From positions 9,110 through 58,803 of the forward strand of contig DFZE01000203.1 of assembly GCA_002382065.1 (NCBI GenBank): 49,694 nt of DNA, read 5' to 3'. This document shows positions 23,775-47,672 of the stretch, piece by piece. Position 1 is the stretch's first letter; every line of letters begins with the position of its first letter. The DNA is from Desulfobacteraceae bacterium UBA4064. Lineage in GTDB: Bacteria > Desulfobacterota > Desulfobacteria > Desulfobacterales > Desulfatirhabdiaceae. The notes under the pieces are model-generated. The model was not told where the DNA came from. It searched no databases and saw only the letters and a list, made by a program, of their open reading frames with translations. The position numbers were made by a program, and so were the translations under genes.

Positions 23775-23776
23775 CC

Positions 23777-29564: not shown

Positions 29565-29565
29565 T

Positions 29566-30897
29566 TCACAATAAATTGCTCGCCAGCTCGGACAGCTCCG
29601 ACCGCTCCCCTTTTTCCAGATTGATATGCGCATACAGTTTTTGTCCATGCATTTTCTCTATCAGATAACTGAGTCCGTTTGACTGGGTATTCAGATAGGG
29701 ATGGTCAATCTGAAAAATATCACCGGTAAACACAATTTTGGTGTTCTCGCCGGCCCGGGTGATGATGGTTTTGACTTCATGCGGTGTCAGGTTCTGGGCT
29801 TCATCCACAATAAAATAGATGTTGACCAGGCTTCGCCCGCGAATATAGGCCAGCGCAGATATGACCAGCTTGTTTTCATCCAGAAGCCGGTTGACGGATT
29901 CCCGTGTCGATTCGGATTTGCCGAAATGACTCTTGATGACGCTCAGATTGTCAAACAATGGCTGCATATACGGATCCAGTTTGGACTGAATGTCACCCGG
30001 AAGAAAACCGATATCCTTGTTGCTGAGGGGAACGACCGGTCTGGCCAGAAAAATCTGTCGGTAATTCTTTTTGCGGTGAAGGGCGGCGGCCAGTGCCAGA
30101 AGTGTTTTTCCGGTCCCGGCTTTTCCGCTGAGGGTAACCAGTTGGATATTGCTGTTGGTCAGGGCATCCAGCGCAAAGGTTTGCTCGGCATTGCGCGGCA
30201 GGATGCCATATGCCGGGTTCTTGTCAATCCGCCTGATTTTCCGGATGAACGGGTCAAAGGTTGCCAGTACGGATTTGCTGTTGTTTCTGAGGACAAAATA
30301 TTCGTTGGATACCGAATCAGTTTCAATGGGTATTTCTGATGGATCGATTTCAAACGGATCCTCAACCATTTTTTTGAGTACACTTTCCGGGATGTTCTCC
30401 AGAAAGCGCTTGCCCGTATAAAGCGTTGCAATATCCTTGACCTGATCGCTTTTATAGTCCTGGGCCAAAAGCCCGATAGATTTTGCCTTGATCCGGAGAT
30501 TGACATCCTTGGTGACCAGAATGACCTGAAGGGATGGTTTTTCCGTTGCGACATGGTAGGCGATATTGAGGACATGATGATCCGGTCTGGATTCTGAAAA
30601 ACTCAATACAAGGTCTTCATGAAATTTCTGGTCCAGCCTGACCGTTATCTTTCCAAGCCCTGGCCCGATGGGTACACCACCGTTGAACAGGTGGTCGCCA
30701 CACAAAATATCCAGTGTGCGGACAAATTCCCGGGCATGAAAGTTCAGAATTTCACTGCCCTTTTTGAACTGATCCAGTTCCTCCAGTACGGTTACCGGAA
30801 TAACGACATTATTCTCTCCAAAGTGATAAATACAGGCGCTGTCATGAAGAATGACATTGGTATCCAGAATGTAGGTAATTTTCTTTTTTCGTGGCAT
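29566..30897 (-). CDS. PIN-domain / PhoH-like ATPase fusion (PhoH2 / YlaK type)
   Basis: N-terminal PIN (YILDTNVILHD...VLEELD) and C-terminal PhoH ATPase (LSGKAGTGKTLLALAAAL, FIVDEAQNL). Confidence 0.85.
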   Translation of the reverse strand: MPRKKKITYILDTNVILHDSACIYHFGENNVVIPVTVLEELDQFKKGSEILNFHAREFVRTLDILCGDHLFNGGVPIGPGLGKITVRLDQKFHEDLVLSFSESRPDHHVLNIAYHVATEKPSLQVILVTKDVNLRIKAKSIGLLAQDYKSDQVKDIATLYTGKRFLENIPESVLKKMVEDPFEIDPSEIPIETDSVSNEYFVLRNNSKSVLATFDPFIRKIRRIDKNPAYGILPRNAEQTFALDALTNSNIQLVTLSGKAGTGKTLLALAAALHRKKNYRQIFLARPVVPLSNKDIGFLPGDIQSKLDPYMQPLFDNLSVIKSHFGKSESTRESVNRLLDENKLVISALAYIRGRSLVNIYFIVDEAQNLTPHEVKTIITRAGENTKIVFTGDIFQIDHPYLNTQSNGLSYLIEKMHGQKLYAHINLEKGERSELSELASNLL

Positions 30898-31046: not shown

Positions 31047-31074
31047 CATACCGGATATTCACCCTAACGCACAA

Positions 31075-31103
31075 CAATTAGGAACGTATTAGATTTTTGT
31101 TAG
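31075..31103 (-). promoter_or_regulatory. Pho-box-like heptamer array oriented toward the PIN-PhoH gene
   Basis: The minus strand reads CTAACAA-aaat-CTAATAC-gttc-CTAATTG: three 7-mers at exact 11-bp spacing. Confidence 0.5.
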
Positions 31104-31173
31104 GAAATTGTGACCGCCGCCGCTTTTCCCATTATTCATGATCTGTGGACGGACGGAGCATTTTCATCAAGTC

Positions 31174-31213: not shown

Positions 31214-31310
31214 AATGCTCATGGTTCATTCAATCCCACAGGATTTCCGGCCGGACCTGATGAGTACCGGAATAACCTTTTCTGGTCAACACATGAAATT
31301 GGGGCGTGGT

Positions 31311-32363
31311 ATGGCAAGAAGACTGATCATCTGTCTTATGATCGTTTCGGGGATGCTGGTTTCAGAATTTTCAATGGCGCAACCCATTCTGAATGGTGCG
31401 GGCGCCACGTTCCCCAGTCCATTGTATCGGAAATGGATCGATGCGTACCGCCAGGTTTCGGATACCAGAATCGATTACCGGGAAACCGGTTCCGGGAGGG
31501 GGATTCAGCTTTTTCTGGATCAACAGGTGGATTTTGGGGGAACCGATGTATTTCTGGCAGATGAAGAAATTCAAAGATGTCCCCGGGAAATCATTCATAT
31601 CCCCACCTGTATGAGTGCGGTAGCGGTCATATTCAATCTGCGCCACAACACGGATATCAGGCTGTCACCGGATATGCTTGCCGATATTTTTATGGGACAC
31701 ATTACCCGATGGTCTGACAAAAGGCTTGTCAGCATCAATCCCGAACTTTCCGGTGTTGATCTGAATATCACGGTGATTCACCGGTCAGACAGCAGTGGAA
31801 CGACCCATATTTTTTCAGATTATCTCTCAAAAGCCGACAAAACCTGGTCCATAAATATGGGATGCGGGACATTGCTGAAATGGCCGGTTGGGCTGGGACT
31901 GGAAGGTAATCCCGGCGTGACGGAATACGTCAAAAAAGTGCCTGGAAGCATCAGCTATGTGTCGCTGAATTATGCGGTTGAAAACAATCTGCCGGCAGCG
32001 TTGGTTCAAAACAGGACAGGCAACTTCATTCGGCCATCCCGCCAATCTGTCTCACTGGCCGGGGATGTGGCTGTTCCAGAGGATCTGCGCATCATCATAA
32101 CCGACACGTTGGCCTGCGGGGGTTATCCCATCAGCGCATTCACCTACCTGCTCGTTTACAAAGAGCAGGGATATCTGAATCGATCCCGGGAAACAGCCAA
32201 GTCTCTGGTCGATTTCCTTCTGTGGATTACAACAAAAGGCCAGTCGTTTACCGAATCGATGAATTATGCCCATCTTCCCCCGTCCGCTGCGCCAATTGTC
32301 GCGAAAGCCATTCATTCCATCATGTACAAAGGAGATATGATTTGCATATCGGAAAAACCGTAA
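31311..32363 (+). CDS. pstS: phosphate ABC transporter substrate-binding protein (PstS family)
   Basis: Signal peptide MARRLIICLMIVSGMLVSEFSMA followed by NGAGATFPSPLYRKWIDAY and HRSDSSGTT. Start is uncertain: ATG 31311 is preferred, and 31293 and 31215 are also in frame. Confidence 0.8.
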   Translation: MARRLIICLMIVSGMLVSEFSMAQPILNGAGATFPSPLYRKWIDAYRQVSDTRIDYRETGSGRGIQLFLDQQVDFGGTDVFLADEEIQRCPREIIHIPTCMSAVAVIFNLRHNTDIRLSPDMLADIFMGHITRWSDKRLVSINPELSGVDLNITVIHRSDSSGTTHIFSDYLSKADKTWSINMGCGTLLKWPVGLGLEGNPGVTEYVKKVPGSISYVSLNYAVENNLPAALVQNRTGNFIRPSRQSVSLAGDVAVPEDLRIIITDTLACGGYPISAFTYLLVYKEQGYLNRSRETAKSLVDFLLWITTKGQSFTESMNYAHLPPSAAPIVAKAIHSIMYKGDMICISEKP

Positions 32364-34489
32364 ATGGCAGGTGGATGTGGGGTAAAACCGGACAGTATCT
32401 GTTTCGAATCATGTGGATTATGGCCGTTTTGTTTACCGTAGTTGTCAAACATGAATCCCATGCGTCAGAATTACAAGTAACGATTGGCATCAGTGAATTC
32501 GAGCCGTTATATTGTATTTCCGATCAGGTCATCGATTCCGGAATGATCGTGACCGTGCTGCGGAAGATTGCCACGGAAGAAAACTGGCATATCCGGTTGG
32601 TCCCCGGCACACGCGAAAAAACACTTGAAAGACTGGAATCCGGTGAAGTCGATATTGCGGCGATGATACCCTACAAACGACAGCCGGACCGAAGATTCGA
32701 TTTCAATCAGGAAACCCTTTTGTCAACCTGGGCCCAAATCTATTGCGGCGAAACACTGGAAATACAATCCTTTCTGGATCTGGCCGGTCGATCCATCGGC
32801 GTCATTCGGGAAGATGAATATGCCAGAGCCATACGAAATACGGTTGCCGGGTTGAATATTTCCTGCAGAATTGTGGAGTTCAATCATCCTGTTGAAATAT
32901 TCCAGGCGATTCAGAAAGGCTGGATCGATGCGGGTGTTGTGGACCGTTTTCAGGGTCATCTGAATGCCAAAATGGATGGCGTCAAACAGACATCCATTAT
33001 CTTTTCACCCATTGAACTCCGCCTGGCGTCGTTGAAAAACCAGAACAGGAACCTCCTGGATGCCATCGATTACGGTCTGAAAAAACAGAAAAATGCGCCA
33101 GATTCCGTATATCATCGGGAACTCGGCAAAATCATTGGCGGACTGGATGATTCTGCTGCTTACCGGCGCCTGATGGTGTGGCTGATTGCCTGTTCGGGCT
33201 TTCTGATATTCACCGGTATGGCGGCAGTCCTGTTGCGCTATCAGGTCAGAAAAAAAACCGCGGAGTTGTTACAGAATCAACAGGTTCTGAAGGATGAAAT
33301 TATTGCCAGACGCAGCGCCGAAGAACGGTATAAAAGCATTTTTGAAAATACGGGTACGGCGACCGTTCTGATTGAAGAGGACATGACCCTGTCCATGATC
33401 AACGAAAATGCCGCCAAACTGCTGGGTTACCCCAGGGAACAGATAGAAGGCAAAATGAAAACCGGTGATTTTATCACCGGTGAAGTATTTCAAATGGTCA
33501 GCCGGTTTCACCGGGACAGACGGCGGGGAGATCCAAATGTACCCACCGAATACGAAGCCCAACTGATCAATAGAAACGGCGATAAAAAAGAAATCTTTTT
33601 CCGGGTGGGCATGCTTCCGGAAACCCGGACCAGTATCGCCTCCCTGATTGACATCACGGACAAAAAACAAATGGAACACCAATTGCGACAGGCTCATAAA
33701 CTGCAGGCCATTGGCGCCCTGGCAGGTGGCATCGCACATGATTTCAACAATGTTCTCACCGGAATAATGGGATATGCGGAAATGGCGCTTAAAGACCCGG
33801 AAAATCCATCCCTGCTGACAAAACGGATCGGCCATATTCTGACCGCCGGCGCCAGGGCCCGGGAACTGATCCGGCAGATTTTGACATTCAGCCGTCAAAA
33901 CGAGCACAGGGTCGAACCGGTTATCATGAACCATATCCTGGAAGAAACACTCCGGCTGATTCAGGCCACTGTTCCGGGCACAATTACCATAAAAACCAGA
34001 AACGATGCGCCCGCCGGAATGATTATGGCAGATCCCACCCAGATTCATCAGGTTATTCTGAACCTCTGCACCAATGCCATTCAGTCCATGGGGAACAATC
34101 GGGGGGAATTGATGGCATCTCTGAATACCGTTGTATTGAATGGCGCGGCGGTTCGATTCCAGCCCCCGCTGAAGCCCGGAAAATATGTGCAACTGACCAT
34201 CCGGGATACCGGCCAGGGAATGAGCCCTGACATCGTCGATCGGATATTCGATCCGTTTTTTACCACCAAAAAGCCGGGCGATGGTACGGGAATGGGGCTT
34301 TCGGTTGTTCATGGTATTGTAAAGAGCCTTCAGGGCAGCATCGCAGTTCACAGTGAATACGGAAAAGGCTCGATATTTGATGTTTATATTCCGGCTGCAG
34401 ACAGCCATATCGGTCAACCCGGTGTATCACACAGGATCGATGCGGTTGCTGTCGAACCAAAGATGCTTTCCGGCCAATGCGAACACTGA
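32342..34489 (+). CDS. sensor histidine kinase (periplasmic SBP_3-like domain, TM, PAS, HisKA, HATPase) lacking a receiver domain
   Basis: GGIAHDFNNVLTGIMGYAEMAL H-box, LNLCTNAIQSM, DTGQGM, GTGMGLSVVHGIV. TTG 32342 is 7 nt after AAGGAG, and ATG 32375 is an alternative start. Confidence 0.8.
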   Translation: MHIGKTVNGRWMWGKTGQYLFRIMWIMAVLFTVVVKHESHASELQVTIGISEFEPLYCISDQVIDSGMIVTVLRKIATEENWHIRLVPGTREKTLERLESGEVDIAAMIPYKRQPDRRFDFNQETLLSTWAQIYCGETLEIQSFLDLAGRSIGVIREDEYARAIRNTVAGLNISCRIVEFNHPVEIFQAIQKGWIDAGVVDRFQGHLNAKMDGVKQTSIIFSPIELRLASLKNQNRNLLDAIDYGLKKQKNAPDSVYHRELGKIIGGLDDSAAYRRLMVWLIACSGFLIFTGMAAVLLRYQVRKKTAELLQNQQVLKDEIIARRSAEERYKSIFENTGTATVLIEEDMTLSMINENAAKLLGYPREQIEGKMKTGDFITGEVFQMVSRFHRDRRRGDPNVPTEYEAQLINRNGDKKEIFFRVGMLPETRTSIASLIDITDKKQMEHQLRQAHKLQAIGALAGGIAHDFNNVLTGIMGYAEMALKDPENPSLLTKRIGHILTAGARARELIRQILTFSRQNEHRVEPVIMNHILEETLRLIQATVPGTITIKTRNDAPAGMIMADPTQIHQVILNLCTNAIQSMGNNRGELMASLNTVVLNGAAVRFQPPLKPGKYVQLTIRDTGQGMSPDIVDRIFDPFFTTKKPGDGTGMGLSVVHGIVKSLQGSIAVHSEYGKGSIFDVYIPAADSHIGQPGVSHRIDAVAVEPKMLSGQCEH

Positions 34490-34515
34490 CCGGAGGCAGC
34501 TTGAGCGGTTTGCTG

Positions 34516-34555
34516 ATAACTGATTATTAACAATAAACTAATCAAATCCTAATAA
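34516..34555 (+). promoter_or_regulatory. Pho-box-like heptamer array upstream of the GAK-type operon
   Basis: ATAACTG-atta-TTAACAA-taaa-CTAATCA-aatc-CTAATAA with 11-bp periodicity. TTAACAAtaaaCTAATCAaa is almost identical to 45916..45935. Confidence 0.55.
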
Positions 34556-34678
34556 TGTTTTGTTATACCCTTCCAAATTGACAATTATAGTCGTGACATC
34601 AATCGGAGATCCCTTCGATTGCGAGCCAAAAGCATTATTTTGACAGTCCCATCATCAATTGCATCCAGGAGATTTGCC

Positions 34679-35227
34679 ATGAAAAAGAAAGGGAACAAAG
34701 AGGAGATTCTTGTCTATGGAGAAAATGCCGTCGTGTTTCTCCAGAGTATCGTTGATGGTTTATCCAGAAAGCGGGTTGAACCCTCATCGGGATTGATTGA
34801 CTTTTCACGGCTCAAAAAACTGAAAATCTCTGTAAAAAAGAAATTTGAACAGCCCTATGTCAAATGCAAAGTCAAGTACAAAGACAACGAGGACATCCTG
34901 CAGGATCTGGTTGAAGGCTCTGAACCGGATACGGAAAAGCCGGATTACGGTCTTCTGAAAAAGCGGATGAAAAACACATTTCAAAGTATCGGCGACCGTC
35001 TGACAAACGGCAGTTTTCCATCCAGTCTGGAAATGGATCTGTTTTGTAAAAACGCCAGACTGATGACCACTTATGACGGTTATGGGGACAGCATGTATAC
35101 GGAATTTCTACAACTGATCGAAGCTTTTCAGGATGCGTTTCACAAGGATGATATCAAAACATGTCAGGAAAAATATCTTGAAATCAAGGATATGAAAACA
35201 GCCTGTCATCATGACGAAAAAGGCTGA
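34679..35227 (+). CDS. XXXCH-domain small protein (GAK-system type)
   Basis: Ends ...LEIKDMKTACHHDEKG. The N-terminal half resembles an amphi-Trp-like fold (AVVFLQSIVDGLSRKRVE...KLKISVKKK). ATG 34679 is 8 nt after AGGAG. Confidence 0.6.
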   Translation: MKKKGNKEEILVYGENAVVFLQSIVDGLSRKRVEPSSGLIDFSRLKKLKISVKKKFEQPYVKCKVKYKDNEDILQDLVEGSEPDTEKPDYGLLKKRMKNTFQSIGDRLTNGSFPSSLEMDLFCKNARLMTTYDGYGDSMYTEFLQLIEAFQDAFHKDDIKTCQEKYLEIKDMKTACHHDEKG

Positions 35228-35326
35228 AGACTGAAGACTGAAGGGACCGCATTACCGCATTCACGCGTGGCAGCCGTTGGACAGGCAGGCTGTTTCTCAA
35301 TACGCACGGCTCATGCCTCAATACTG
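35222..35326 (+). repeat. GGCTGAAG modular intergenic repeat, copy 3
   Basis: GGCTGAAGACTGAAGACTGAAGG..CCGCATT..CAGCCG, a hairpin, then TTTCTCAATACGCACGGCTCATGCCTCAATACTG. Its first GGCTGA provides the stop codon of the upstream gene. Confidence 0.7.
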
Positions 35327-35341
35327 AATCAAAAGAAAGCA

Positions 35342-36496
35342 ATGGAATTGTTGAAATCCAAAACCGAATGTATTCCACTGTATCCGCAAAAGTTTTCTGA
35401 AATCATCACGGAAAATGATGAAAAAAATTTTGCAAAGATAACATCCACCACTCTGTCACCGGAACAAATTGAACAGATTTTGACCCCCGCTGTCATTTAT
35501 CCCCGACAAAAAACCGTTCTGGCAGTCCACTGGCATCCCGAATTCATTCCACTGGATCTGATCGAAACGCGCATCCACAATATGTTCCCCAACTTGACCA
35601 CACAGTTGATCATTCCCACACAGCACAATGTCATGATGACGTTTCATGAATACGCCGGGGTGGAAGTGGATGCCTATTCCCGGGGATTCAACCAGAAAGT
35701 CCAGTTGTTGCTGCATTTCAATGCCAAAAAGGTGGAAACGGCACATGTGTTGAAATCCATGCTGGCATACACCCTGAAATATCGCCAGAACCAACTGAAC
35801 GAGTTCATTCACACCCTGATCAAACCCAATGAAGAACGAATTGGGCTGGCTGCAGAAGAAACCGGCGCAACAGAGGACTGTATCCGCTTTGTCCGGATTC
35901 AAATCCGCAAATTGCATGAACTGATCGAACGACATTTCGACCGATTGCCGACCGAGATGTTCAAAAACAAGCTGGTGCGGGATTTTCTGGATGAATACCG
36001 GCCGGAATATGGGGATGCCTGGATCAATCGGGCACAAACCTTTCTTCATGCCGTCAAGCAGATTGTCAAATCCAATTTTTCCATGCGGTATTTTTACAGG
36101 ACTTCCGAAATTATCGAGGAAGCGAGATCTCTGGGGGGCAGAATTGTGATCCCGCACCCGGAACAGTTCTGGCCCATTCTTCTGGCCGATTATGATGTGG
36201 ATGGATATGAGGTCTGGAATCCGCAGTCCCAACGATACACCGAATTTCTGATATCCGTCGTCAACCGGAAAAATGCTCAGGTGACTGAAAATCGTGAAAA
36301 ACTGCTGCTGTTCATGGGTGACGACACCCATATGAGTGAAAAGGTGAGAGACCCGAATAAACAGGATCGGGAAAAAGTCAGCCGTGAAATCGGTATTCAA
36401 CCGGCATGGGAGGATATGGACATCCGGAAAGCACTCATTACCGCCCACATGAATCGCAGGCTGGTGATTGAAGAATACAAAAACCGGTTGGGGTGA
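35342..36496 (+). CDS. hypothetical protein, possibly a PHP-like metal-dependent phosphoesterase
   Basis: Ordered His/Asp motifs AVHWHPEF, IVIPHPEQ, GYEVWNPQ and FMGDDTHM are reminiscent of PHP-domain motifs. Start set at ATG 35342, because the track extension lies in repeat copy 3. Confidence 0.4.
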   Translation: MELLKSKTECIPLYPQKFSEIITENDEKNFAKITSTTLSPEQIEQILTPAVIYPRQKTVLAVHWHPEFIPLDLIETRIHNMFPNLTTQLIIPTQHNVMMTFHEYAGVEVDAYSRGFNQKVQLLLHFNAKKVETAHVLKSMLAYTLKYRQNQLNEFIHTLIKPNEERIGLAAEETGATEDCIRFVRIQIRKLHELIERHFDRLPTEMFKNKLVRDFLDEYRPEYGDAWINRAQTFLHAVKQIVKSNFSMRYFYRTSEIIEEARSLGGRIVIPHPEQFWPILLADYDVDGYEVWNPQSQRYTEFLISVVNRKNAQVTENREKLLLFMGDDTHMSEKVRDPNKQDREKVSREIGIQPAWEDMDIRKALITAHMNRRLVIEEYKNRLG

Positions 36497-36663
36497 GTTT
36501 GGCGATGTGCCGGGAAGGCGGGCTGACTGACGGCCGAATGTATGAAATATGAATATGAAAATGGTAAAGGGGAAATGAGCAGCAGGAAGGCAACCCGACC
36601 GCCTGACACTGCCCACTGACCACTGACCACTGACCACTGATTTTCACGCTGAGGAGACATGAC

Positions 36664-36939
36664 ATGACAGACAACGAGAAATTCGATCATGAGTCCATCC
36701 AGGACCGACAAACCATCAGAAAGTACTTCAATTCATTGATTGAAGGGCTTGAAAACGGGCGAATCGTTTTTTCATCGGAAAAAGACAATGTGCTGTTAAC
36801 ACCGTCAGAGCTGATTCGGTTTTCGATTAAAACCAAAAAAAAGCCGGGGAAATCCAAACTCACCATCAAACTGGCATGGGATGATGCAGCCGTTATCACT
36901 TCAAGAGAAAAAAGCAATGCCATCCAGATCGCATCATGA
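36664..36939 (+). CDS. amphi-Trp domain protein
   Basis: QTIRKYFNSLIEGLENGRIVFSSEKDNVLLTPSELIRFSIKTKKKPGKSKLTIKLAWDD has the same helix/hairpin/Trp layout as 28339..28680. Confidence 0.6.
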   Translation: MTDNEKFDHESIQDRQTIRKYFNSLIEGLENGRIVFSSEKDNVLLTPSELIRFSIKTKKKPGKSKLTIKLAWDDAAVITSREKSNAIQIAS

Positions 36940-38587
36940 GGCTGCCTTAAAAATTGATGAGATACGGGAAAATTTCAAATTTCTCTGGATAGAGATATGC
37001 GGACAGATCAAATCAACCAGAGAGTTGTTTGATCATCCCGGTGCCCGGCTTTTCAATAAAATCTGTTCCCGGGATGATTATATCGACAATCTGAAGACTA
37101 CTGTTGAAAATGCCTGCTTTTCCCGTATTCACAGCCTTGAACCCCTTGACAGGGAAGAAATCAATACAATTCGCTCCATCCATATCATCTGTGTCAATCT
37201 GGAACGCATTGCCGATTTTTGTGTCAATATTGCCCGGCAACTGGAATATCTGTCCGATCCGGCATTCATGCACCGGTTTGATTACAATTCCATGATTCAG
37301 GAAATTGAGGAGAATATACGCACCATTTTTTCCGCGTTTGACGACAGAAGCCTCGTGGTCGCCTTAAAAATCTGCAAATCGGAATACCGGTTGGACCTGC
37401 TCTACAAAACGGAATTCGACCGTATCATGGTCGAACTGAATGAAGGTCAATCGGCCCAGAATCTGGTTACGGTCCTCTTTATTTTCCGGTATCTCGAACG
37501 GATCGGTGATTCGCTTCTCAATATCGGAGAGGCCCTTCTGTTTCTGGTTGTCGGTGAAAAAATCAAGATTCACCAGTTTGAAGCCCTTCAAAAAACACTG
37601 ACCGCGTCCGGTTACTCGGGCAAATTCTCGGAAATTGATTTCAAATCCATTTGGGGGTCTCGTTCCGGTTGCAGAATCAGCCTGATTGCACAAAAGGATG
37701 CATCCCGGAATAGATCCCAGGGAATCTTCAAGGAGGGGAATCTGAATAAAATCCAGCGGGAGAAGGATAATCTAACCCGATGGAACATCATTTACCCGGG
37801 GTTGACGCCCAGAATTTTCGGGTATCATGAGAATGACGAAACCGCATCGCTGTTGGTAGAATTTTTGCCCGGATGCACCATGGAAGAGGTTTTCCTGTCT
37901 GCCGGCACCGATATTGTTCAAAATGCCCTGTTTCTGATGGAACAGGTCATTTGGGATATCTGGGAACAGACCCGGATTCTGGAGCCCATCCCGGTCAATG
38001 CCATGCAGCAGTTGTCAAGCCGGCTGGAAGACACACGCCGGCTGCATCCAGACCTGTTGTGGTGCGAAAAGCAGTTGGGATCACTTTCAATTCCCTCCAC
38101 CATCAGGCTGATTCAGCAATGCGCCGGGATTGAAAGCGAAATCAGGGCGCCTTTTTCGGTTTTTTGCCACGGTGATTTCAACGCCAACAATCTGGTGTAT
38201 GATCATTCCACCCAGCGCATTCATTTTATCGATGTCTATCGGTCCCACCAGGGAGATTACATCGGTGATGCCGCTGTTTTTCTGGTCTCCAATTTCAGGT
38301 TGCCGGTGTTTGAAGTGTCGGTCCGCGAACGTCTGAATGAGGTGATCGCCCAGTTCCTGGATCTGGTTTTCCGGTTTGCCAAAACCCATGATGACACCAC
38401 CTTCCAGATTCGACTGGCTCTGGCGCTCAGTCGAAATTTTTATACCTCCATACGTTTTGAACACAATTCCGATTTTGCAAAGGAAATGGTTCTTCGGTCC
38501 CATTACCTGATGGAAAAAATCGTGAATCATTCATCCGCCGATTGGGCAGCCTTTTCGTTTCCGGAAGACATTCTGTTTTACGGATGA
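36917..38587 (+). CDS. PhoU-domain (two repeats) / aminoglycoside-phosphotransferase-like kinase fusion protein
   Basis: PhoU repeats VNLERIADFCVNIARQ and RYLERIGDSLLNIGEAL. Kinase catalytic loop FCHGDFNANNLVYD and IHFIDVYRS. The start could also be ATG 36881. Confidence 0.65.
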   Translation: MPSRSHHEAALKIDEIRENFKFLWIEICGQIKSTRELFDHPGARLFNKICSRDDYIDNLKTTVENACFSRIHSLEPLDREEINTIRSIHIICVNLERIADFCVNIARQLEYLSDPAFMHRFDYNSMIQEIEENIRTIFSAFDDRSLVVALKICKSEYRLDLLYKTEFDRIMVELNEGQSAQNLVTVLFIFRYLERIGDSLLNIGEALLFLVVGEKIKIHQFEALQKTLTASGYSGKFSEIDFKSIWGSRSGCRISLIAQKDASRNRSQGIFKEGNLNKIQREKDNLTRWNIIYPGLTPRIFGYHENDETASLLVEFLPGCTMEEVFLSAGTDIVQNALFLMEQVIWDIWEQTRILEPIPVNAMQQLSSRLEDTRRLHPDLLWCEKQLGSLSIPSTIRLIQQCAGIESEIRAPFSVFCHGDFNANNLVYDHSTQRIHFIDVYRSHQGDYIGDAAVFLVSNFRLPVFEVSVRERLNEVIAQFLDLVFRFAKTHDDTTFQIRLALALSRNFYTSIRFEHNSDFAKEMVLRSHYLMEKIVNHSSADWAAFSFPEDILFYG

Positions 38588-38740
38588 TGGCGGCGCATCA
38601 GGTGTTGAAACCGAGCCGGAACAGAAAATGTTTTGGGTTTTGAGTGTTGAGTTTTGGGTTGAAAGCAGTACATGTCATTTTCATATGTTTGGGTTAACAA
38701 TATGGAATGATTCATGATCGTTCACAGTAACACGCATTGC

Positions 38741-38799
38741 ATATAGCTTTTAAGATAAGACCGATAACACACCCAAAATCTTTATCTTGAAAGCTATAT
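38741..38799 (+). promoter_or_regulatory. long hairpin carrying 34-nt motif copy b, immediately upstream of the ATP-grasp gene
   Basis: ATATAGCTTTTAAGATAAGA pairs with TCTTTATCTTGAAAGCTATAT (about 19 bp, one bulge, one G-U) around the loop CCGATAACACACCCAAAA. The hairpin ends 18 nt before the ATG at 38818. Confidence 0.6.
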
Positions 38800-38817
38800 C
38801 ATGCAGCAAGGATCATT

Positions 38818-39693
38818 ATGCCTCACATAGCCGTTATTGGAAACTATGGCGGATGGTCATCCGAACACCTGGCAGATTGTGTCGCCAACGTTACCGGAAG
38901 ACGTCTGCTGGTGGATATGAACAGTGTCTGCCTGGATTTATCCCATGAAAAGGTCTGGTTTGAAGGCGTCGATCTGACCCGGCTGGATGCCGTCATCATC
39001 AAAAAGATCGGACCCTATTACTCCCCCCATCTTCTGGACCGTCTTGAAATTCTGCGTTTTCTGGAACACAAAGGCGTTCGTGTTTTTTCCCGTCCACTGA
39101 ATATCCTTCGGGTGCTTGACCGGCTCAGTTGCACCATCACGCTGCGCATGGCCGGCATTCCCATGCCGGAAACGGCCATCACGGAAGATACCAGTCATGC
39201 ACTCAGATTGATCCGGGATTTTCAGGAGGCAGTACTCAAACCACTTTACTCGACCAAAGCCAGGGGAATGCAGGTGGTTCGATATGATAAAGATGCACAT
39301 CTCGATGTGGAAATATTCAAACAGGACAATCCGATCATGTATATCCAGAAAAAACTGGATATCCGGGGAAAAGATTTGGGCATCGTGTTTCTGGGCGGGG
39401 AGTATGTCACCACATATGCCCGCTGTAACGACAGCGCATCCTGGAATACATCCACGGAAAATGGGGGCCGGTACATGGCCTATGACCCCGGCCCCGAAAC
39501 CATTGAAGTGGCCAGAAAGGCCCAGTCCCTTTTTGATCTCGATTTCACCAGTGTGGATGTGGTGGAAACGGAAGACGGGCCGCTGGTGTTCGAGGTCTCC
39601 GCATTCGGGGGATTCAAGGGCATGGAAATCGCCCGTAACATGGATGGCGCCAAACTGTATCTTGACTATGTGTTAAAAAGGATTGAATCATGA
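38818..39693 (+). CDS. RimK-like ATP-grasp ligase (GAK-system type)
   Basis: AVLKPLYSTKARGMQVV, YIQKKLDIRGKDLGIVFLGGEYV, FTSVDVVETEDGPLVFEVSAFGGFKG. Confidence 0.8.
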   Translation: MPHIAVIGNYGGWSSEHLADCVANVTGRRLLVDMNSVCLDLSHEKVWFEGVDLTRLDAVIIKKIGPYYSPHLLDRLEILRFLEHKGVRVFSRPLNILRVLDRLSCTITLRMAGIPMPETAITEDTSHALRLIRDFQEAVLKPLYSTKARGMQVVRYDKDAHLDVEIFKQDNPIMYIQKKLDIRGKDLGIVFLGGEYVTTYARCNDSASWNTSTENGGRYMAYDPGPETIEVARKAQSLFDLDFTSVDVVETEDGPLVFEVSAFGGFKGMEIARNMDGAKLYLDYVLKRIES

Positions 39694-40766
39694 TCGCAAA
39701 TGACTATATCCGGGAAAATCTGGCCAAACGAATCCGGTCCAACTACCCGGTTGAGGATGAGCTTAGGCTTCAGTTTGGCAATTGTCATATTCAGGTTCAG
39801 TCCAATTCCGAATCGGTCATAGCGGAGCTGAAAACCTATTTCAGTCCGTTTTTGGAGAGGCAGCCCGCGCCAGACTGTCTTGTCATTTCTGTGTTTCAGG
39901 CGGATGATTTTTCCGCGGATATTCCGTTTACGGAAAAAATGCCCGACCCCGGAAAATCCAAAATCAAGGAAGAATATGCCGATATCCCTGGCGGCCGAAT
40001 TGTCCGGAAACAATTGACCGGTATGGTGTTCATTTTTGGTGACACGGATCACATCGCCATCGGTCCGTGTATGGAGAATCTGAATCAGGTGGTCAATTTT
40101 ATCAATAACCGCTACATTGAATGGCTGATTTGTCGCGGTGGGATTCTGGGCCATGCCGCAGGCATTAGACTCCATGACAACGGAATCGCACTGGCCGGTT
40201 TTTCCGGCATGGGCAAATCCACACTGGCCCTGCATCTGGTCAGCAGAGGCGCAGACTTTGTCAGCAATGACCGCCTGATTCTGGAAAAGAGCGAAACCGG
40301 TATCCGGATGCATGGCGTTGCCAAACTGCCCCGCGTCAATCCGGGGACAATATTGCACAATCCGGATTTGAAGGGACTGTTGTCCGATGGTGAATATGAG
40401 CGTTTTTCGGCTTTGTCACAAGAGGATATCTGGAATCTGGAACACAAGTATGATGTGCCCATTGACCGCTTTTTTGGAGCCAACCGCTTTGTTTTGAGCT
40501 CGGAGATGGATGCCCTGGTCATCCTCAACTGGCAGAGAAATTCTCAACCTGCAGCCATGCGGCCTGTGGATATTGAACGTCGCAGGGACCTTTTGCCGGC
40601 TTTCATGAAATCCACCGGCCTCTTTTTTCTGCCAAAACGACCCGAACAAATCACCAACCCAACGGAATATGCCTACATCAATATGCTGAAGAAGCGTCCG
40701 GTGTTTGAAATCTCGGGCGGTGTGGATTTTGAGGCTGCGGCCAAATACCTGATTGGCAGAATTTGA
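39690..40766 (+). CDS. HprK-related P-loop kinase (GAK-system type)
   Basis: GIALAGFSGMGKSTLALHLVSRGADFVSNDRLIL matches the HPr kinase C-terminal P-loop region. ATGA overlap with the ATP-grasp gene. Confidence 0.7.
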   Translation: MIANDYIRENLAKRIRSNYPVEDELRLQFGNCHIQVQSNSESVIAELKTYFSPFLERQPAPDCLVISVFQADDFSADIPFTEKMPDPGKSKIKEEYADIPGGRIVRKQLTGMVFIFGDTDHIAIGPCMENLNQVVNFINNRYIEWLICRGGILGHAAGIRLHDNGIALAGFSGMGKSTLALHLVSRGADFVSNDRLILEKSETGIRMHGVAKLPRVNPGTILHNPDLKGLLSDGEYERFSALSQEDIWNLEHKYDVPIDRFFGANRFVLSSEMDALVILNWQRNSQPAAMRPVDIERRRDLLPAFMKSTGLFFLPKRPEQITNPTEYAYINMLKKRPVFEISGGVDFEAAAKYLIGRI

Positions 40767-40790
40767 AAGATCACATTTGAAATACCCTGT

Positions 40791-41981
40791 ATGCACCTGA
40801 ACATTCAAAAATCAGTAAAAATCCCGGACCGGGCCAGAATGGCCCTGTTTAAAAAATGTCCGGAACTGGGCCCCAAAATCCTGTTTTTCAGCGGCGGAAG
40901 CGCACTGAGAAAACTCTCTCAGGACCTGATTCATTACACCCACAATTCCATCCATATCATTACCCCGTTTGATTCGGGTGGCAGTTCCGCCACATTGAGA
41001 ACCGCCTTTGACATGCCGGCAGTGGGGGACATCCGAAACCGCCTCATGGCCCTGGCAGACCAGACGTTTCAGGGCAATCCCGAAGTTTACACCCTGTTTG
41101 CCCATCGGCTGCCCCAGCAGGCAAACCCCGTCGAACTGCGCGACACACTGGAAGCCATTATCAGCGGCAATCATGCGTTGATCCACGGCATTTCCCATCC
41201 CATGAGAAAAATCATCCGGCATCATCTGAATTTTTTTTACCAGAACATGCCGGAATCCTTTGATCTCCGGGGAGCCAGTATCGGAAATCTGGTTCTTGCC
41301 GGCGGATATTTCAGTTATGACAGACATCTCGATCCGGTCATTTACATTTACTCCAGCCTGGTTCAGGTACGGGGGACGGTGCGACCGGTTGTCAACACGC
41401 CGGTTCATATGGCGGCCAAACTGAAGACCGGAGAAATGGTTCTGGGGCAGCACCGGATCACCGGAAAGGATTGCCCGAATCCCGCAGACCGAATTGAAGA
41501 AATATATCTGACATCGAGCCTGAATCAATTCGATCCGGTGGATGTCGCCATCCGTGAAAAAATAACGGCGCTGATTCTGGATGCGGATGTGATCTGTTTT
41601 CCGATGGGCAGTTTTTTTTCCAGCATTCTGGTGAACGTTTTGCCCCGGGGCGTCGGCCGGGCGGTCAGGCAGAACCCCTGCCCCAAAATCTTTATCCCCA
41701 ACATGGGAAATGATCCCGAGCTGTTGGGATATTCCATCATGGAACAGATTCATATCCTCATCAGATATCTCCTGAAAGACTGTACCGACCAGTCACCCGC
41801 CCACCATGTCTTGACCCATATCCTGATTGACCGGTCTCACAGGGATTATCCAACAGCTCCGGAAACTGAAACCCTGGCCCGGAAAAGTATTCAAATTCTG
41901 GGCATGGACCTGGTTCATCCGGATGATGCATCGATCATCGATGAAAAAAAGCTGATCCCGATTCTTTTGTCTCTGGCATAG
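40791..41981 (+). CDS. CofD/YvcK-like (2-phospho-L-lactate transferase superfamily) protein (GAK-system type)
   Basis: KILFFSGGSALRKLSQDL and IITPFDSGGSSATLR correspond to the two N-terminal CofD/YvcK signature stretches. Confidence 0.75.
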   Translation: MHLNIQKSVKIPDRARMALFKKCPELGPKILFFSGGSALRKLSQDLIHYTHNSIHIITPFDSGGSSATLRTAFDMPAVGDIRNRLMALADQTFQGNPEVYTLFAHRLPQQANPVELRDTLEAIISGNHALIHGISHPMRKIIRHHLNFFYQNMPESFDLRGASIGNLVLAGGYFSYDRHLDPVIYIYSSLVQVRGTVRPVVNTPVHMAAKLKTGEMVLGQHRITGKDCPNPADRIEEIYLTSSLNQFDPVDVAIREKITALILDADVICFPMGSFFSSILVNVLPRGVGRAVRQNPCPKIFIPNMGNDPELLGYSIMEQIHILIRYLLKDCTDQSPAHHVLTHILIDRSHRDYPTAPETETLARKSIQILGMDLVHPDDASIIDEKKLIPILLSLA

Positions 41982-42025
41982 CGGCATGGGTTGCACAGCC
42001 ACCCACCTGATTCATCCTTTATCCC

Positions 42026-42172: not shown

Positions 42173-42293
42173 GGGAACTGATGTTCGAAACACGATACAG
42201 GATAAAGACAAAGAAAAGCATAGGATTGGATAGGGTATTGTTTTTCAGAAATTAAATTTCCGCTTTTGACGGGATTCAGGATGTGCTTTTTGA

Positions 42294-42779: not shown

Positions 42780-44555
42780 ATGTCAAAGCTGATTGACTTA
42801 TCCCGGGTAATCCACCGTCCCATCAACAGAAATCTTTTCGGAATGCTTCAAGGTCCTGTGGAACGATTTCTCTCCATCGATCGTATCAATTATCATCATG
42901 AATGCCTGCATCAAAAGCTGTTTTCGGGAGTTTTTAATCAAAATCTGTTCGAAACGATGCTGGATGTCCTGAATATCCGGTATACCTGTGACCGGGCCGA
43001 CCTGGATCGGATTCCGGATGAAGGACCGCTTATGGTTGTGGCCAATCACCCCTTCGGCGGGATTGAAGGGATCATCATGGGGGCAATGATGTTGCGGGTT
43101 CGCCCCGATGTTCGAATCATGGGGAACTACCTGCTGAAAGAGATCGCAGGTCTGGGAGACTGGATTTTCTCGGTGAATCCGTTCGATAACCGACAGACAC
43201 GGGACAGTTTGCAGGGGTTGAAACAATCCCTGTCCTGGGTAAAACACGGAGGTGCTCTGGTTGTCTTTCCGGCGGGTGAGGTCGCCACATGGGATTCGAG
43301 TAAGGGCCTGGTGTCGGATTCCGACTGGAGTCCCCATGTCGCATCTCTGATTCGGTTCACCCGGGCCACAGCCGTGCCGGTCTATTTTCCCGGACAAAAC
43401 AGTGTCCTCTTTTCAATGGCCGGAATGGTTTCACCCGGCTTGCGAACCATGCTCCTTCCCCGCGAGCTTGCGAACAAGACCAGCCGAACATTCACCATAC
43501 ATATCGGCAGGCCCATTCCCTGGTCTCACCTGCAACGGCATACCGGGGATTCCTCCATCATCGACTATTTGAGAATCAATACGGAAGTCCTGCAACTGCG
43601 TTCTCGCGGCAAACCGTCATCATTCAGGGGTTTCACAATATCCCCGATCCGGAAAAGCAGAATGGAACCAATCATGCCTCCCGTACCGGGTGAAATGCTG
43701 GAGCGGGAGCTGAATGCGCTTCCTGCGGGCCAACTGTTGATCCGACAGGGGAATTTTTCTGTGCATATCGCACAAAGCGGCCAAATCCCGAATCTGCTGA
43801 AAGAGATCGGACGACTTCGGGAAAAGACATTTCGGCAGGCGTGTGAAGGAACCGGGCGTTCCGTGGATCTGGATCACTTCGACCGGTACTATCTGCATCT
43901 CTTCCTGTGGAACAATGAATCGTCCGAAGTGGTGGGGGCCTATCGGCTGGGCCTGGTTGACCGGATTGTTCGCCAATACGGCGGCAAGGGGCTTTACACC
44001 AGCACACTGTTCCGGTTTCATCCAGAGTTTTACCACGATCTTACCGATGCTATCGAATTCGGTCGATCGTTCATCCGCTGTGAATATCAAAAAAAATTCA
44101 ACACGCTGATCCTGATCTGGCGCGGCATCGGTGAATTCATCAACAGAAACCCACATTATCAAATCCTTTATGGGCCGGTCAGCATCAGTCATGACTACCA
44201 GAGCGTATCGAAGAATCTGCTGGTGCGTTTCCTGACGCAAACCCGGATGAACACCCGTCTTTCCCCGTATGTGACTCCGCGTCGCCCCTTCCGTACGTCC
44301 CGCATCCGCTTTCTGGAGTCCGAATCGATCCGGAATGCGTTTCAGGATATCGAAGACATTTCCTTCGTGATTTCCGAAATTGAAAAGGATGGAAAGGGTG
44401 TACCGGTATTGTTGAAACACTACTTGAAGCTGAACGGAAAATTGCTGGGCTTTTCGGTGGACAGGGATTTTTCCGGTGTGGTGGATGGCTTGTTGATGGT
44501 CGATCTGCGGGACGCGAACACGAAATTGGTGAAACGTTTCATGGGCAAGAAATGA
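42780..44555 (+). CDS. bifunctional PlsC-like O-acyltransferase / GNAT-like N-acyltransferase (OlsF-like ornithine-lipid synthase architecture)
   Basis: N-terminal MVVANHPFGGIEGII...VVFPAGEV (acyltransferase). C-terminal REKTFRQACEGTGRSVDLDHFDRYYLHLFLWN..EVVGAYRL (OlsB-like N-acyltransferase). Confidence 0.65.
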   Translation: MSKLIDLSRVIHRPINRNLFGMLQGPVERFLSIDRINYHHECLHQKLFSGVFNQNLFETMLDVLNIRYTCDRADLDRIPDEGPLMVVANHPFGGIEGIIMGAMMLRVRPDVRIMGNYLLKEIAGLGDWIFSVNPFDNRQTRDSLQGLKQSLSWVKHGGALVVFPAGEVATWDSSKGLVSDSDWSPHVASLIRFTRATAVPVYFPGQNSVLFSMAGMVSPGLRTMLLPRELANKTSRTFTIHIGRPIPWSHLQRHTGDSSIIDYLRINTEVLQLRSRGKPSSFRGFTISPIRKSRMEPIMPPVPGEMLERELNALPAGQLLIRQGNFSVHIAQSGQIPNLLKEIGRLREKTFRQACEGTGRSVDLDHFDRYYLHLFLWNNESSEVVGAYRLGLVDRIVRQYGGKGLYTSTLFRFHPEFYHDLTDAIEFGRSFIRCEYQKKFNTLILIWRGIGEFINRNPHYQILYGPVSISHDYQSVSKNLLVRFLTQTRMNTRLSPYVTPRRPFRTSRIRFLESESIRNAFQDIEDISFVISEIEKDGKGVPVLLKHYLKLNGKLLGFSVDRDFSGVVDGLLMVDLRDANTKLVKRFMGKK

Positions 44556-44786: not shown

Positions 44787-45136
44787 TCAGTCGAAAGAGA
44801 ATCGGATCTCTTTTGGTTTTTTTTCTTTCGGAAAGGATTCTTCTTCCGGCAACGCATCCAGGCAGGGCTTCTCGCAGGAAACATTGATCTCCGCCTCGAG
44901 TTTTTCCCCAAAAATTTCTTCCTTCCAGCTCAGCCCGATTTCAATTTTCTGCTTTTCTTTTTTTGACGGCCTCAATTTCAACCACGATCTGTCCGGCAGG
45001 ATTGAGGGTAACGAACGAAGTTTTTTTTTTGAACCACGAGTTTTCCATCCTGGAAACTGGTCACCATGTCGGAATAAAGGTTGGCTATGGCATCCTTGTC
45101 CATTTTGCCTTTGATGCTGACTTCATTTATTTTCAT
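44787..45136 (-). pseudogene. frameshifted paralogue of the amphi-Trp gene at 28339..28680
   Basis: MKINEVSIKGKMDKDAIANLYSDMVTSFQDGKLVVQKK then changes frame in a 10-nt homopolymer (45021-45030). It changes frame again in a 7-nt run (44958-44964) before ...KQKIEIGLSWKEE. The RBS context AAAGGAACGAGAA-ATG is shared with the intact copy. Confidence 0.7.
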
Positions 45137-45259
45137 TTCTCGTTCCTTTCTTTTTGGGGAATGATTCGTTCGCCTATTGAACTTTATTTTCCGCGATGGC
45201 CCAGCCGCCCGGTTTTCCGAAACATTCAAGATGGCGACATCCGCCTTCTTTTCGATCAA

Positions 45260-46151: not shown

Positions 46152-47672
46152 ATGAAACGAAAAACACCGATCATTATTTTGTCCATAACTCTTGCACTGG
46201 TATGTATGGCAACGATTGCCTGTGCCAAACAGCCGAAATATATTTTTTTCTTTCTCGGGGATGGGATGGCGAATTCGCAGATTCAATCCACCGAAGCGTA
46301 TCTGACCACAATCAATGGTGGCTCCGCAATGAATGCCGAGGATTTGTTGAAAACTGAAAACCGTCTCAACATGAGCAAAATGCCGGTTCAAGGGATGCAG
46401 ACCACTTTCGATTCCTATGCGCTGATGACCGACTCGGCCTCATCGGCAACTGCATTTGCCTGCGGCATCAAGACAATGAGCGGCACTATCGACATGGATT
46501 CCACAAAAACCTACGGTTATAAAAGCGTGGCTCAATTGGCCCATGAAAAAGGCATGAAAGTCGGTATTATCAGCAGCGTATCCCTTGATCATGCAACACC
46601 CGCCGCATACTATGCCAGTGTTCCCAGCAGGGATTATATGAACAATATCGCCACGCAGATGGCGGAGAGCGGCTATGAATTCTTTGGTGGCGGCGGTCTG
46701 GTTTCCCCTACGGGTCCCAAAAAAGATGGTGACAGTTCAAATGATGTCTGGAGTTTGCTCCTTGCGAACGGATACACCGGTCTGAACAACAGGGAATCGA
46801 TTCTGGCCCTTAAAAATTCACCCGTGAGCAAGGTGTTGTGCGTCAACCCCTGGCTGCAGGATGCTTCAGCCATGCCGTATGCCATCGATCGACCAGCCAC
46901 CAATCTTTCGCTGGCGGAGATGACCGAAGTAGCGATTGCCAATCTCAGCGGGATTGAAGATGGGAATGGCTTTTTCCTGATGGTGGAAGGTGGAAAAATT
47001 GACTGGGCCTGTCATGCCAATGACGCAATGGCAACGATTGGCGATATGCTTGACTTTGATGCCGCCGTAGGTGCTGCTCTGAATTTTTATGAAAAAAATT
47101 ACCGGGAAACCCTGATCATTGTCACCGGTGACCATGAGACGGGCGGAATGAGTGTCGGCCATGCTACCACCGGATACAAAGCCTACTATGAAGAATTGCT
47201 GAATCAGAAAAACAGCTTCACATATTTTGCACAAAACCAGTGGGCGGAACATAAAGAAGCCAACAAGGATGGATATGAATGGACAAAGACGGACAACCTG
47301 GCCTCCAACGCAGATATGATCGCCCTGATGAACGATGTGTTCGGTCTTGACTGGAGCAAACTGAATGCCTTCCAGAAAGAAAAGCTCGAAGATGCCTATG
47401 ACAGCTCCATGTCCGGCGCCAACGACAACAATGAGGATGAGAACAAATTTCTGTATGGAAGCTACGAGCCGATCATTGTAACGATCACCCATATCCTCAA
47501 TGAACGGACCAGTATCGGCTGGACATCCTATTCCCATACCGGAGTACCGGTTCCGGTTTATGCACAGGGATGTGAAGCGGTGCGTTTTGCCGGATTTTAC
47601 GATAATACTGACATTGCCAAACGGATCGCCAAGATTATGGGGATATCCCAGTCTCTTCCCATCGTAAAATAG
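46152..47672 (+). CDS. phoA: alkaline phosphatase (PhoA family), probable lipoprotein
   Basis: FFFLGDGMANSQI (metal-binding Asp), the active-site Ser region LMTDSASSATAFACGIKT, and DHATPAA, DWACHAND, TGDHETGG. Signal peptide with a lipobox-like ATIAC. Confidence 0.85.
   Translation: MKRKTPIIILSITLALVCMATIACAKQPKYIFFFLGDGMANSQIQSTEAYLTTINGGSAMNAEDLLKTENRLNMSKMPVQGMQTTFDSYALMTDSASSATAFACGIKTMSGTIDMDSTKTYGYKSVAQLAHEKGMKVGIISSVSLDHATPAAYYASVPSRDYMNNIATQMAESGYEFFGGGGLVSPTGPKKDGDSSNDVWSLLLANGYTGLNNRESILALKNSPVSKVLCVNPWLQDASAMPYAIDRPATNLSLAEMTEVAIANLSGIEDGNGFFLMVEGGKIDWACHANDAMATIGDMLDFDAAVGAALNFYEKNYRETLIIVTGDHETGGMSVGHATTGYKAYYEELLNQKNSFTYFAQNQWAEHKEANKDGYEWTKTDNLASNADMIALMNDVFGLDWSKLNAFQKEKLEDAYDSSMSGANDNNEDENKFLYGSYEPIIVTITHILNERTSIGWTSYSHTGVPVPVYAQGCEAVRFAGFYDNTDIAKRIAKIMGISQSLPIVK

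Follow-up and report, generated by a model that had tools for sequence, protein, structure and literature searches.

Genes and family assignment of the locus

The window analysed here is a 49,694-nucleotide stretch of the Desulfobacteraceae bacterium UBA4064 genome (NCBI assembly GCA_002382065.1, contig DFZE01000203.1, positions 9,110 to 58,803 of the forward strand), and our subject is a run of seven co-directional plus-strand open reading frames (ORFs) that fills positions 34679-41981 and belongs to the GAK system of protein families. In order, the genes encode the XXXCH protein X (34679..35227, 182 amino acids (aa), matched by TIGR04358 and starting at an ATG with AGGAG before it); the PHP-fold phosphoesterase-like protein P (35342..36496, 384 aa, assigned with AlphaFold and Foldseek and not covered by a sequence model); the amphi-Trp protein A (36664..36939, 91 aa, TIGR04354 and PF20068); U, a fusion of a PhoU domain pair with an APH-type kinase (36917..38587, 556 aa, PF01895 twice, PF01636 and PF02958); the GAK ATP-grasp ligase G of the RimK family (38818..39693, TIGR04356); the HprK-related kinase B K, a P-loop protein (39690..40766, TIGR04355); and the GAK CofD-like protein C of the YvcK/GlmR branch (40791..41981, TIGR04357). 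Independent gene calls in three public assemblies of the locus (ENA ERZ27315067, JGI 3300002219 and NCBI GCA_002424785.1) contain the identical seven genes.

Membership in the GAK system is defined by the NCBIfam/TIGRFAMs models TIGR04354-TIGR04358 with their curated cut-offs, all of which are exceeded here. X scores 79.9 bits against the XXXCH model TIGR04358 (cut-off 40), A 67.9 bits against the amphi-Trp model TIGR04354 (cut-off 31), G 432.9 bits against grasp_GAK TIGR04356 (cut-off 300), K 501.2 bits against HprK_rel_B TIGR04355 (cut-off 200) and C 521 bits against CofD_rel_GAK TIGR04357 (cut-off 340). Together with the gene order, which is fixed across the relatives described below, these matches show that the locus is a canonical GAK system, and it is thus a further member of a system that has been named and is uncharacterised. 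The first-pass annotation, made from the sequence of the window, had proposed both the seven co-directional genes and their GAK-type identity, and both proposals hold. Its description of the genes as linked by short gaps or 4-nucleotide (nt) overlaps is correct in part: G and K overlap by 4 nt (the only 4-nt overlap), A and U by 23 nt, and K and C lie 24 nt apart, whereas the X-P, P-A and U-G gaps measure 114, 167 and 230 nt.

Beyond the GAK models, G passes the Pfam RimK model PF08443 (44.1 bits, cut-off 21) and falls below the equivalog cut-offs of MptN (132 versus 350 bits), rimK_fam (101 versus 143), LysX (84 versus 276) and CofF (31 versus 300); the solved structures closest to it are LysX, RimK and ArgX. 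K is not a true HprK, scoring 27.2 bits against TIGR00679 (cut-off 240) and 30.3 bits against PF07475 (cut-off 33.3). Its P-loop motif AGFSGxGKSTLAL and its acidic motif SNDR are conserved in at least 95% of orthologues, and some of its homologues match the ScmC family and the HPr kinase C-terminal domain. C passes the Pfam CofD model PF01933 (125 bits, cut-off 30) and misses the YvcK model TIGR01826 (122 bits, cut-off 196), and its PDB matches are all YvcK-type UPF0052 proteins; by sequence it forms its own branch within the CofD/YvcK superfamily. At the level of sequence motifs, all five enzymes (P, U, G, K and C) are shown to retain their catalytic residues, each motif set being kept in at least 95% of the 45-63 orthologues available.

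A one-genome-per-species scan with a profile of K found relatives in 277 of ~185,000 species, and the best 80 loci were kept and searched with the window proteins by tblastn, in which X, being short and divergent, was often missed. These 80 loci are mostly from Desulfobacterota that reduce sulfate, with single genomes of SAR324, Ignavibacteria and Nitrospinaceae, and a separate look-up added an example from Zixibacteria. The complete order X-P-A-U-G-K-C is present in 32 of the 80 loci and P-A-U-G-K-C in 17 more, most of the others being cut contigs, so that the members of the system are co-localised across genomes as the first-pass annotation had anticipated. U was found in 75 of the 80 loci and P in 60, with the absences again mostly at cut contigs, and the spacing is likewise kept, G and K having a median distance of -4 nt and A overlapping U. 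The conservation of gene order, spacing and presence makes P and U core genes of the system. The earlier view that the PhoU-kinase and PHP-like genes had been added by this copy is therefore not sustained, and an accessory status of P is further contradicted by its database homologues, which are about as numerous as those of K (1631 versus 1860). The enzymes are ~50-60% identical across families, which in combination with the intact predicted active sites argues for an important function. The flanking genes of the 80 loci are not conserved as a set.

Variant arrangements suggest a smaller centre. In the nearest relatives, loci L001 and L003, a sensor kinase gene is followed by A-U-G-K and then by a gene for an EAL-CBS-GGDEF protein, with no P or C within 10 kb. 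Locus L006, which is cut off upstream, likewise has A-U-G-K and lacks a C behind it; these three loci point to A, U, G and K as the innermost core. The variant regions lie at 5162-13087 of L001, 5950-13093 of L003 and 5341-8017 of a further locus, L005. L003 and L005 are from one metagenome-assembled genome and carry internal deletions, which remove most of G in L003 and P, A and most of U in L005, and the L001, L003 and L005 variants may be decaying copies or strain mixtures. Dde_3773-3780 of Desulfovibrio alaskensis G20, located beside a PhoR homologue, was considered as a GAK cluster and rejected, Dde_3777 being annotated as CobT and Dde_3780 as a distant PhoU homologue; the D. alaskensis G20 fitness data cover no GAK cluster.

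Several non-coding features accompany the genes. The 189-nt gap before X contains a promoter-like element, TTAACA-18-AATAAT (34527..34556, plus strand), found by a consensus scan with 10 of 12 matches and carrying no evidence of function. All three long gaps within the cluster contain heptamer tandem repeats, namely AAGACTG x3.4 (35220-35243), CTGACCA x5.6 (36603-36640, plus strand) and GTTTTGA x4.4 (38630-38660). The CTGACCA array, identified with Tandem Repeats Finder, ends ~10 nt before the ribosome-binding site of A, and its copy number is 3, 4 or 6 in otherwise identical assemblies from three samples, a difference that could tune or switch expression. A GC-rich palindrome at 42295-42368 (31-nt arms, 81% complementary, with a 12-nt loop) lies 314 nt past the C stop codon and may be a terminator or a repeat element. 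An Rfam scan of the whole window found no RNA family.

Core enzymes and small proteins

P has no match in Pfam, NCBIfam or PDB sequences, either as a single sequence or as a profile, and the Pfam PHP model PF02811 matches neither P nor any of 37 homologues at expectation values (E) up to 1. Among its 1631 database homologues, many are ~60% identical across Desulfobacterota families and none carries a Pfam domain; one that is 95% identical is labelled Desulfatirhabdiaceae. An AlphaFold model built with 37 sequences has a predicted local distance difference test score (pLDDT) of 88.6 and a predicted template modelling (TM) score of 0.87, and its top three Foldseek matches in the PDB are 3o0f, 3e0f and 9etk (probability 1.0, E 1e-5 to 3e-5, TM 0.39-0.54). 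These three significant matches are PHP phosphoesterases, represented by the Bifidobacterium BAD_1165 protein and Vibrio RNase AM. The residues H63xH65, H95, E108, H125, H272 and D328xH330 are invariant and appear to be laid out like PHP metal ligands, and the motifs HWHPE, PTQHN, GVExD, PHPE and GDDxH are conserved. P thus resembles PHP phosphoesterases of the TrpH/YciV (RNase AM) type in its modelled fold with an inserted helical domain and in the apparent layout of its His/Asp/Glu motifs, and differs from them in being invisible to sequence models and in reaching TM values of only 0.39-0.54. The PHP-like label given in the first-pass annotation therefore stands for the predicted fold, whereas by sequence P belongs to an unmodelled family.

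U contains two PhoU domain stretches (PF01895, 87.6 bits, cut-off 23.5) that match solved PhoU proteins at E 1e-13 to 1e-7, and all U orthologues that were found contain this domain pair. The full-length PhoU equivalog TIGR02135 is missed (82.5 versus 130.25 bits), and U is best described from its sequence as a PhoU domain fusion and not a PhoU orthologue: it shares with PhoU the two stretches with conserved acidic motifs and differs in scoring below the equivalog cut-off and in being fused to a 320-aa kinase domain. The kinase half matches the APH model PF01636 marginally (24.7 bits, cut-off 23.2) and the EcKL model PF02958 weakly, and the motifs HGDxNxxN and IDxxRS are conserved in at least 95% of U sequences. 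A profile of this half matches APH(3') structures at E 0.006 only, and profile searches found no close solved relative of it. The PhoU-kinase fusion read from the window sequence alone is thus borne out, with the qualification that the kinase match is marginal.

Alignment of 66 orthologues of A revealed that F7, K60 and W72 are invariant and that S11, Q13, D14, I18, L25, K69 are near-invariant. Amphi-Trp proteins form 386 clusters among 1.84 billion representative proteins, nearly all of them stand-alone and 85-115 aa long; two long matches in the same search, considered as possible domain fusions, are repeat proteins and look spurious. In a proteomics study of Dissulfuribacter thermophilus, an amphi-Trp protein is listed as one of the 20 most abundant proteins (PMC13490349). 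A second amphi-Trp gene, A2, directly follows C in at least 25 of 66 loci, and its product carries one of two kinds of tail. The tail is acidic in Desulfobacterales-type loci, and it is long, Lys/Ala/Pro-rich and histone-H1-like in the Desulfovibrionaceae-type and Desulfomicrobiaceae A2 proteins (L041, L045, L055, L057, L061, L066, L069, L075 and L078). Two ideas on where A might be modified were discarded: a LysW/S6-type carrier role with a C-terminal Glu, as no such residue is conserved in A or X, and use of the C-terminal Ser, as the terminal 'h-x-I-x-S' looks like a domain boundary that A2 chains run past.

X appears to be a two-domain protein. A hidden Markov model (HMM) built from X sequences only matches A orthologues at E 2e-4 to 7e-3, always pairing X residues ~4-67 with A residues ~17-85, and hhalign aligns X with A at E 1.3e-3 and a probability of 18%; on this basis the N-terminal part of X is read as a probable divergent amphi-Trp-like domain. 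The AlphaFold model of X has an overall pLDDT of 67, within which residues 88-176 form a helical bundle at pLDDT 85-93, and the C-terminal XXXCH domain is accordingly modelled as a four-helix bundle. Only P114, F122, M129, C176 and H177 are invariant across 44 sequences, Met97 being present in 42 of them, and Cys176-His177 lies near the end of helix 4.

These features raise the possibility that X is a haem or metal sensor whose bundle binds its ligand through Cys-His and a conserved Met, like class II cytochromes c or cytochrome b562, and that it couples the system to redox or gas sensing. The compact Foldseek matches of the bundle are indeed cytochrome c', Kusta0087/88 and b562 (probability up to 1.0, target-normalised TM ~0.6), the Cys-His pair is located near the C-terminal end of helix 4, where the CXXCH of these cytochromes lies, and Met129 is invariant with Met97 nearly so. 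However, these matches reach E values of no better than 0.03-0.3 and a four-helix bundle finds matches among many folds, no cytochrome Pfam model matches X even at E = 10, the CXXCH haem motif is absent from X (Cys176-His177 has no first Cys), and the overall pLDDT of the model is 67. Moreover, the N-terminus of X is a soluble amphi-Trp-like domain and not a signal peptide, so that X would be out of reach of the known machinery for haem-c attachment. We consider a haem or metal sensor decidedly improbable.

Phosphate genes and Pho-box-like sites

The window around the GAK cluster reads like a Pho island. Upstream of the cluster lie pstS, encoding a phosphate-binding protein (31215..32363, plus strand; TIGR00975, 303 bits, cut-off 205), and, overlapping its end, a gene for a sensor histidine kinase with a periplasmic solute-binding-like domain, PAS, HisKA and HATPase (32342..34489, plus strand; Pfam matches, start taken from public gene calls). 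The A-U-G-K variants of L001 and L003 also have a kinase in front of them, 55-57% identical to that of the window, and the window kinase may be a dedicated phosphate sensor for the GAK system. No response regulator gene lies beside the pstS/sensor kinase pair (31215-34489). Further upstream are a PhoH2-like PIN-PhoH protein (29566..30897, minus strand; PF02562 and PF13638, with 259.5 bits to NF053827, below its cut-off of 680) and an ArsC-like gene (29008-29538). The downstream region 42780-48995 encodes an OlsF-like bifunctional synthase of a phosphorus-free amino-lipid (42780..44555, plus strand; Acyltransf_2 and Acetyltransf_5, with 384 bits to NF052615, below its cut-off of 620), an alkaline phosphatase (46152..47672, plus strand; PF00245, 244.5 bits) and a YibE/F-like membrane protein, and the alkaline phosphatase and YibE/F pair adjoins the cluster in L003 too. 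In other loci, phosphate genes within 10 kb of the cluster comprise PstC in 8, a PhoB-like regulator in 8 and an ArsC-like gene in 10; PstB-like matches occur in 17, some of which may be other ABC ATPases.

A candidate regulatory site was found in the related loci. The 7-mer TGTWACA is enriched upstream of X, where it is part of the direct repeat TGTNAC-N5-TGTNAC, a dyad with the same 11-bp period as the E. coli Pho box. Allowing one mismatch or none, 13 dyads were counted in the 11.1 kb that precede X (1.17/kb), as compared with 9 in 681 kb of other sequence from these loci (0.013/kb), and in 11 related loci a dyad precedes the leading gene of the GAK operon. Examples of dyads ahead of the leading GAK gene lie at 5320-5337 of L041 and 5804-5832 of L059. 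Outside the discovery set, it is present upstream of P in loci without detectable X (L059, L060, L067 and L074), in the stretch that separates a pstS-family gene from a divergent phoB-like gene (L059), upstream of phnC (L003), and upstream of a PHP-GT4 glycosyltransferase gene (L060 and L054). In the window, the only match allowing one mismatch is TGTTAGGAAATTGTGAC at 31098..31114 (plus strand), ~100 nt upstream of pstS, a count that is not significant on its own (1 match versus 1.28 expected by chance). Since the dyads precede the GAK genes in related loci but only pstS in the window, membership in the Pho regulon appears well supported by these sites for part of the GAK family, and is plausible, by indirect indications, for the window copy.

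A link of this system to phosphate, which had been suggested from the PhoU-kinase and PHP-like genes of the window, is thus supported by the PhoU domains of U, the Pho-gene neighbours and the dyads in related loci, with the reservation that the window dyad is at pstS. As P and U are conserved across the family, the link belongs to the family as a whole and not to the window copy alone.

Long proteins with a GT4 domain adjoin several GAK clusters (768-3254 of L060, 5898-8381 of L054 and 6857-9247 of L084). The L084 protein has an N-terminal PHP phosphoesterase domain, as judged from a weak, sub-threshold PHP match and a marginal PHP_C match. Such GT4 proteins may convert phospholipid to glycolipid under low phosphate.

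The ~16.5-kb phosphate/GAK island is flanked by a diverged inverted duplication of a two-gene unit that itself encodes an amphi-Trp protein. One copy (28001-28680, plus strand) consists of a 101-aa ORF (28001-28306) followed by an extra amphi-Trp paralogue of 113 aa with an acidic tail (28339..28680; 83.6 bits to an amphi-Trp HMM built from the loci, and PF20068 in public gene calls). The other is inverted at 44787-45310 (minus strand) with 74-77% complementarity between the two repeats (I1 and I2), and its amphi-Trp gene (44787..45259) is frameshifted, the HMM match being split over two ORFs.

This duplication, the three long intergenic gaps of the cluster and a guanine-plus-cytosine content of 0.42-0.49 across the island (26000-46000), as compared with 0.53-0.55 at 15000-26000, could be taken to indicate neighbours that share no function, or a mobile or defence island. 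Such a reading is strongly disfavoured and in our view barely credible, because the gene order is conserved across families and phyla; in addition, PADLOC found no defence-system match, and mobile-element genes were not seen among the flanking genes scanned.

Models of GAK function and comparison with known systems

We tentatively favour the view that GAK is a phosphate-controlled protein-modification or signalling module acting on amphi-Trp proteins. The substrates or scaffolds would be the small amphi-Trp proteins, namely A, the N-terminal domain of X and often A2. The PhoU domains would gate the kinase U, which is probably translationally coupled to A, by phosphate status, and K would phosphorylate a small protein, as HPr kinase does with HPr or Crh and HprK-like kinases do with peptides. 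The reverse reaction of HPr kinase uses phosphate and pyrophosphate; if K keeps this type of phosphorolysis, the reversal itself would depend on both. G, presumably coupled translationally to K, would ligate an amino acid, probably glutamate, C would bind or transfer a nucleotide-diphospho-linked group, and P would remove a phosphate ester. The output may tune the low-phosphate response, for example through envelope and lipid remodelling.

Four lines of evidence led us to this preference. Two or three small proteins are strictly co-conserved with the enzymes, and reading frames overlap at A-U and G-K. HPr kinase and the HprK-like kinases of lasso-peptide clusters, which are relatives of K, act on proteins or peptides, and some K homologues match the ScmC family. 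The nearest solved relatives of G (LysX, RimK and ArgX) act on protein C-termini. Lastly, GlmR/YvcK, to which C is closest among characterised proteins, binds UDP-sugars and has a regulatory role, and its operon also encodes YvcJ, a P-loop protein, and Crh, which is HPr-like (PMC6171935).

Other observations weigh against the preferred view. Separate transcription units are conceivable in the window, given the three gaps of 114-230 nt and a weak terminator-like hairpin that follows U. X of the window has no canonical Pho box directly upstream, the dyad there preceding pstS only, and among the related loci the dyad was found in no more than 11, its discovery having drawn in part on these very upstream regions. 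A has no strictly invariant Ser/Thr, Ser11 being present in 61 of 66 sequences, and neither A (66 sequences) nor X (44 sequences) has the conserved acidic C-terminus of RimK/LysX-type targets such as LysW and S6, which weakens the classical carrier version of the first-pass proposal that the small proteins would be carriers or substrates. Outside the GAK models, G scores best in NCBIfam with the cofactor ligase MptN; most APH-type kinases have small molecules as substrates; and we know of no CofD/YvcK member that modifies a protein. Literature searches on the GAK family names and accessions found nothing on function, in line with the first-pass annotation, which knew of no published substrate, product or phenotype.

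Some of the same observations suit the main rival, a small-molecule pathway, in which C and G would build a phosphodiester-linked, glutamylated compound like the tails made by CofD/CofF or MptN (F420 and tetrahydromethanopterin), K and U would supply phosphorylated precursors, P would trim phosphate, and the amphi-Trp proteins would serve only as regulators, chaperones or product binders. Pfam places C in the CofD family (125 bits), MptN (132 bits) is the best non-GAK model for G, with CofF also matched, and the APH-like fold of U is mostly one of small-molecule kinases. The structural relatives of P include PHP esterases of the RNase AM/TrpH type, which act on nucleotides and RNA ends, and a carrier-type acidic C-terminus is absent from A and X. 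Conversely, the cluster contains no CofC-like nucleotidyltransferase for donor activation, the MptN, CofF and LysX equivalog cut-offs are all widely missed, A-U-G-K of the variant loci persists with neither C nor P inside 10 kb, and the relatives of K act on proteins or peptides. C, moreover, is closer by sequence to YvcK/GlmR than to CofD proper, and GlmR is a regulator (PMC6171935). A small-molecule pathway is therefore possible, if on the unlikely side.

An unlikely alternative is a pure signalling switch with no new product, in which A would be a phosphate-status phosphoprotein like HPr or Crh, K and U would set its state, C would be a GlmR-like ligand-binding regulator, and the output would go to two-component and cyclic diguanylate signalling. 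It accords with the sensor kinase directly upstream in the window, L001 and L003, with the EAL-CBS-GGDEF proteins that adjoin the cluster in L001 and L003, and with a similar-sized family with EAL-like sequence (not Pfam-scanned) upstream in ~10 further loci; PhoU domains, too, have a sensing or regulatory role wherever they are known. An ATP-grasp ligase and a PHP esterase with intact conserved catalytic motifs fit a pure switch poorly, as does the lack of an invariant Ser/Thr in A.

The protein-modification module that we prefer can be drawn more specifically, at the price of becoming rather improbable. GAK would then be an undescribed phosphate-controlled protein modification in which the PhoU-gated and HprK-type kinases phosphorylate abundant amphi-Trp proteins, the RimK-type ligase and the CofD-type transferase build a phospho-linked, glutamylated adduct, and the PHP esterase erases it. 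The histone-H1-like or acidic tails on some amphi-Trp paralogues suggest that such a mark could control binding to a polyanion, for example the nucleoid or polyphosphate, in phosphate-starved sulfate reducers.

In comparison with known systems, the cluster resembles HPr kinase and the Bacillus yvcI-yvcJ-glmR(yvcK)-yvcL-crh-yvcN operon in that an HprK-type P-loop protein, a CofD/YvcK-type protein and a ~90-aa protein are encoded together. It differs in that K scores 27 bits where true HprK requires 240, A is not HPr-like in sequence and no phosphotransferase system genes are present, and in that the Bacillus operon has nothing equivalent to the GAK genes for the ATP-grasp ligase, the PhoU-kinase and the PHP protein. 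The pairing of a CofD-family protein with a RimK-family glutamate ligase recalls CofD/CofF and MptN of F420 and tetrahydromethanopterin biosynthesis; here, however, all equivalog cut-offs are missed, a CofC-type enzyme is lacking, and the genes, which belong to a sulfate reducer, stand in a phosphate-starvation context and not among cofactor genes. With RimK, LysX and ArgX the system shares the closest solved structures to G and a small protein encoded alongside, whereas neither A nor X ends in a conserved Glu or acidic tail as the targets S6 and LysW do.

The closest comparison is with the NCBIfam GAK system itself, a name with no function attached, whose five models are all passed within one co-directional cluster. 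Unlike the curated set of five families, the cluster described here and its relatives include P and U, which are equally conserved, and often A2 after C. New here are a seven- to eight-gene core, the predicted fold of P, the probable two-domain architecture of X and a Pho-box-like site. The tie to phosphate starvation provides a concrete growth condition, and the dyad is a candidate regulator site. If the system modifies proteins, it would represent new modification chemistry, and if it makes a metabolite, perhaps a new phosphodiester-linked, glutamylated compound.

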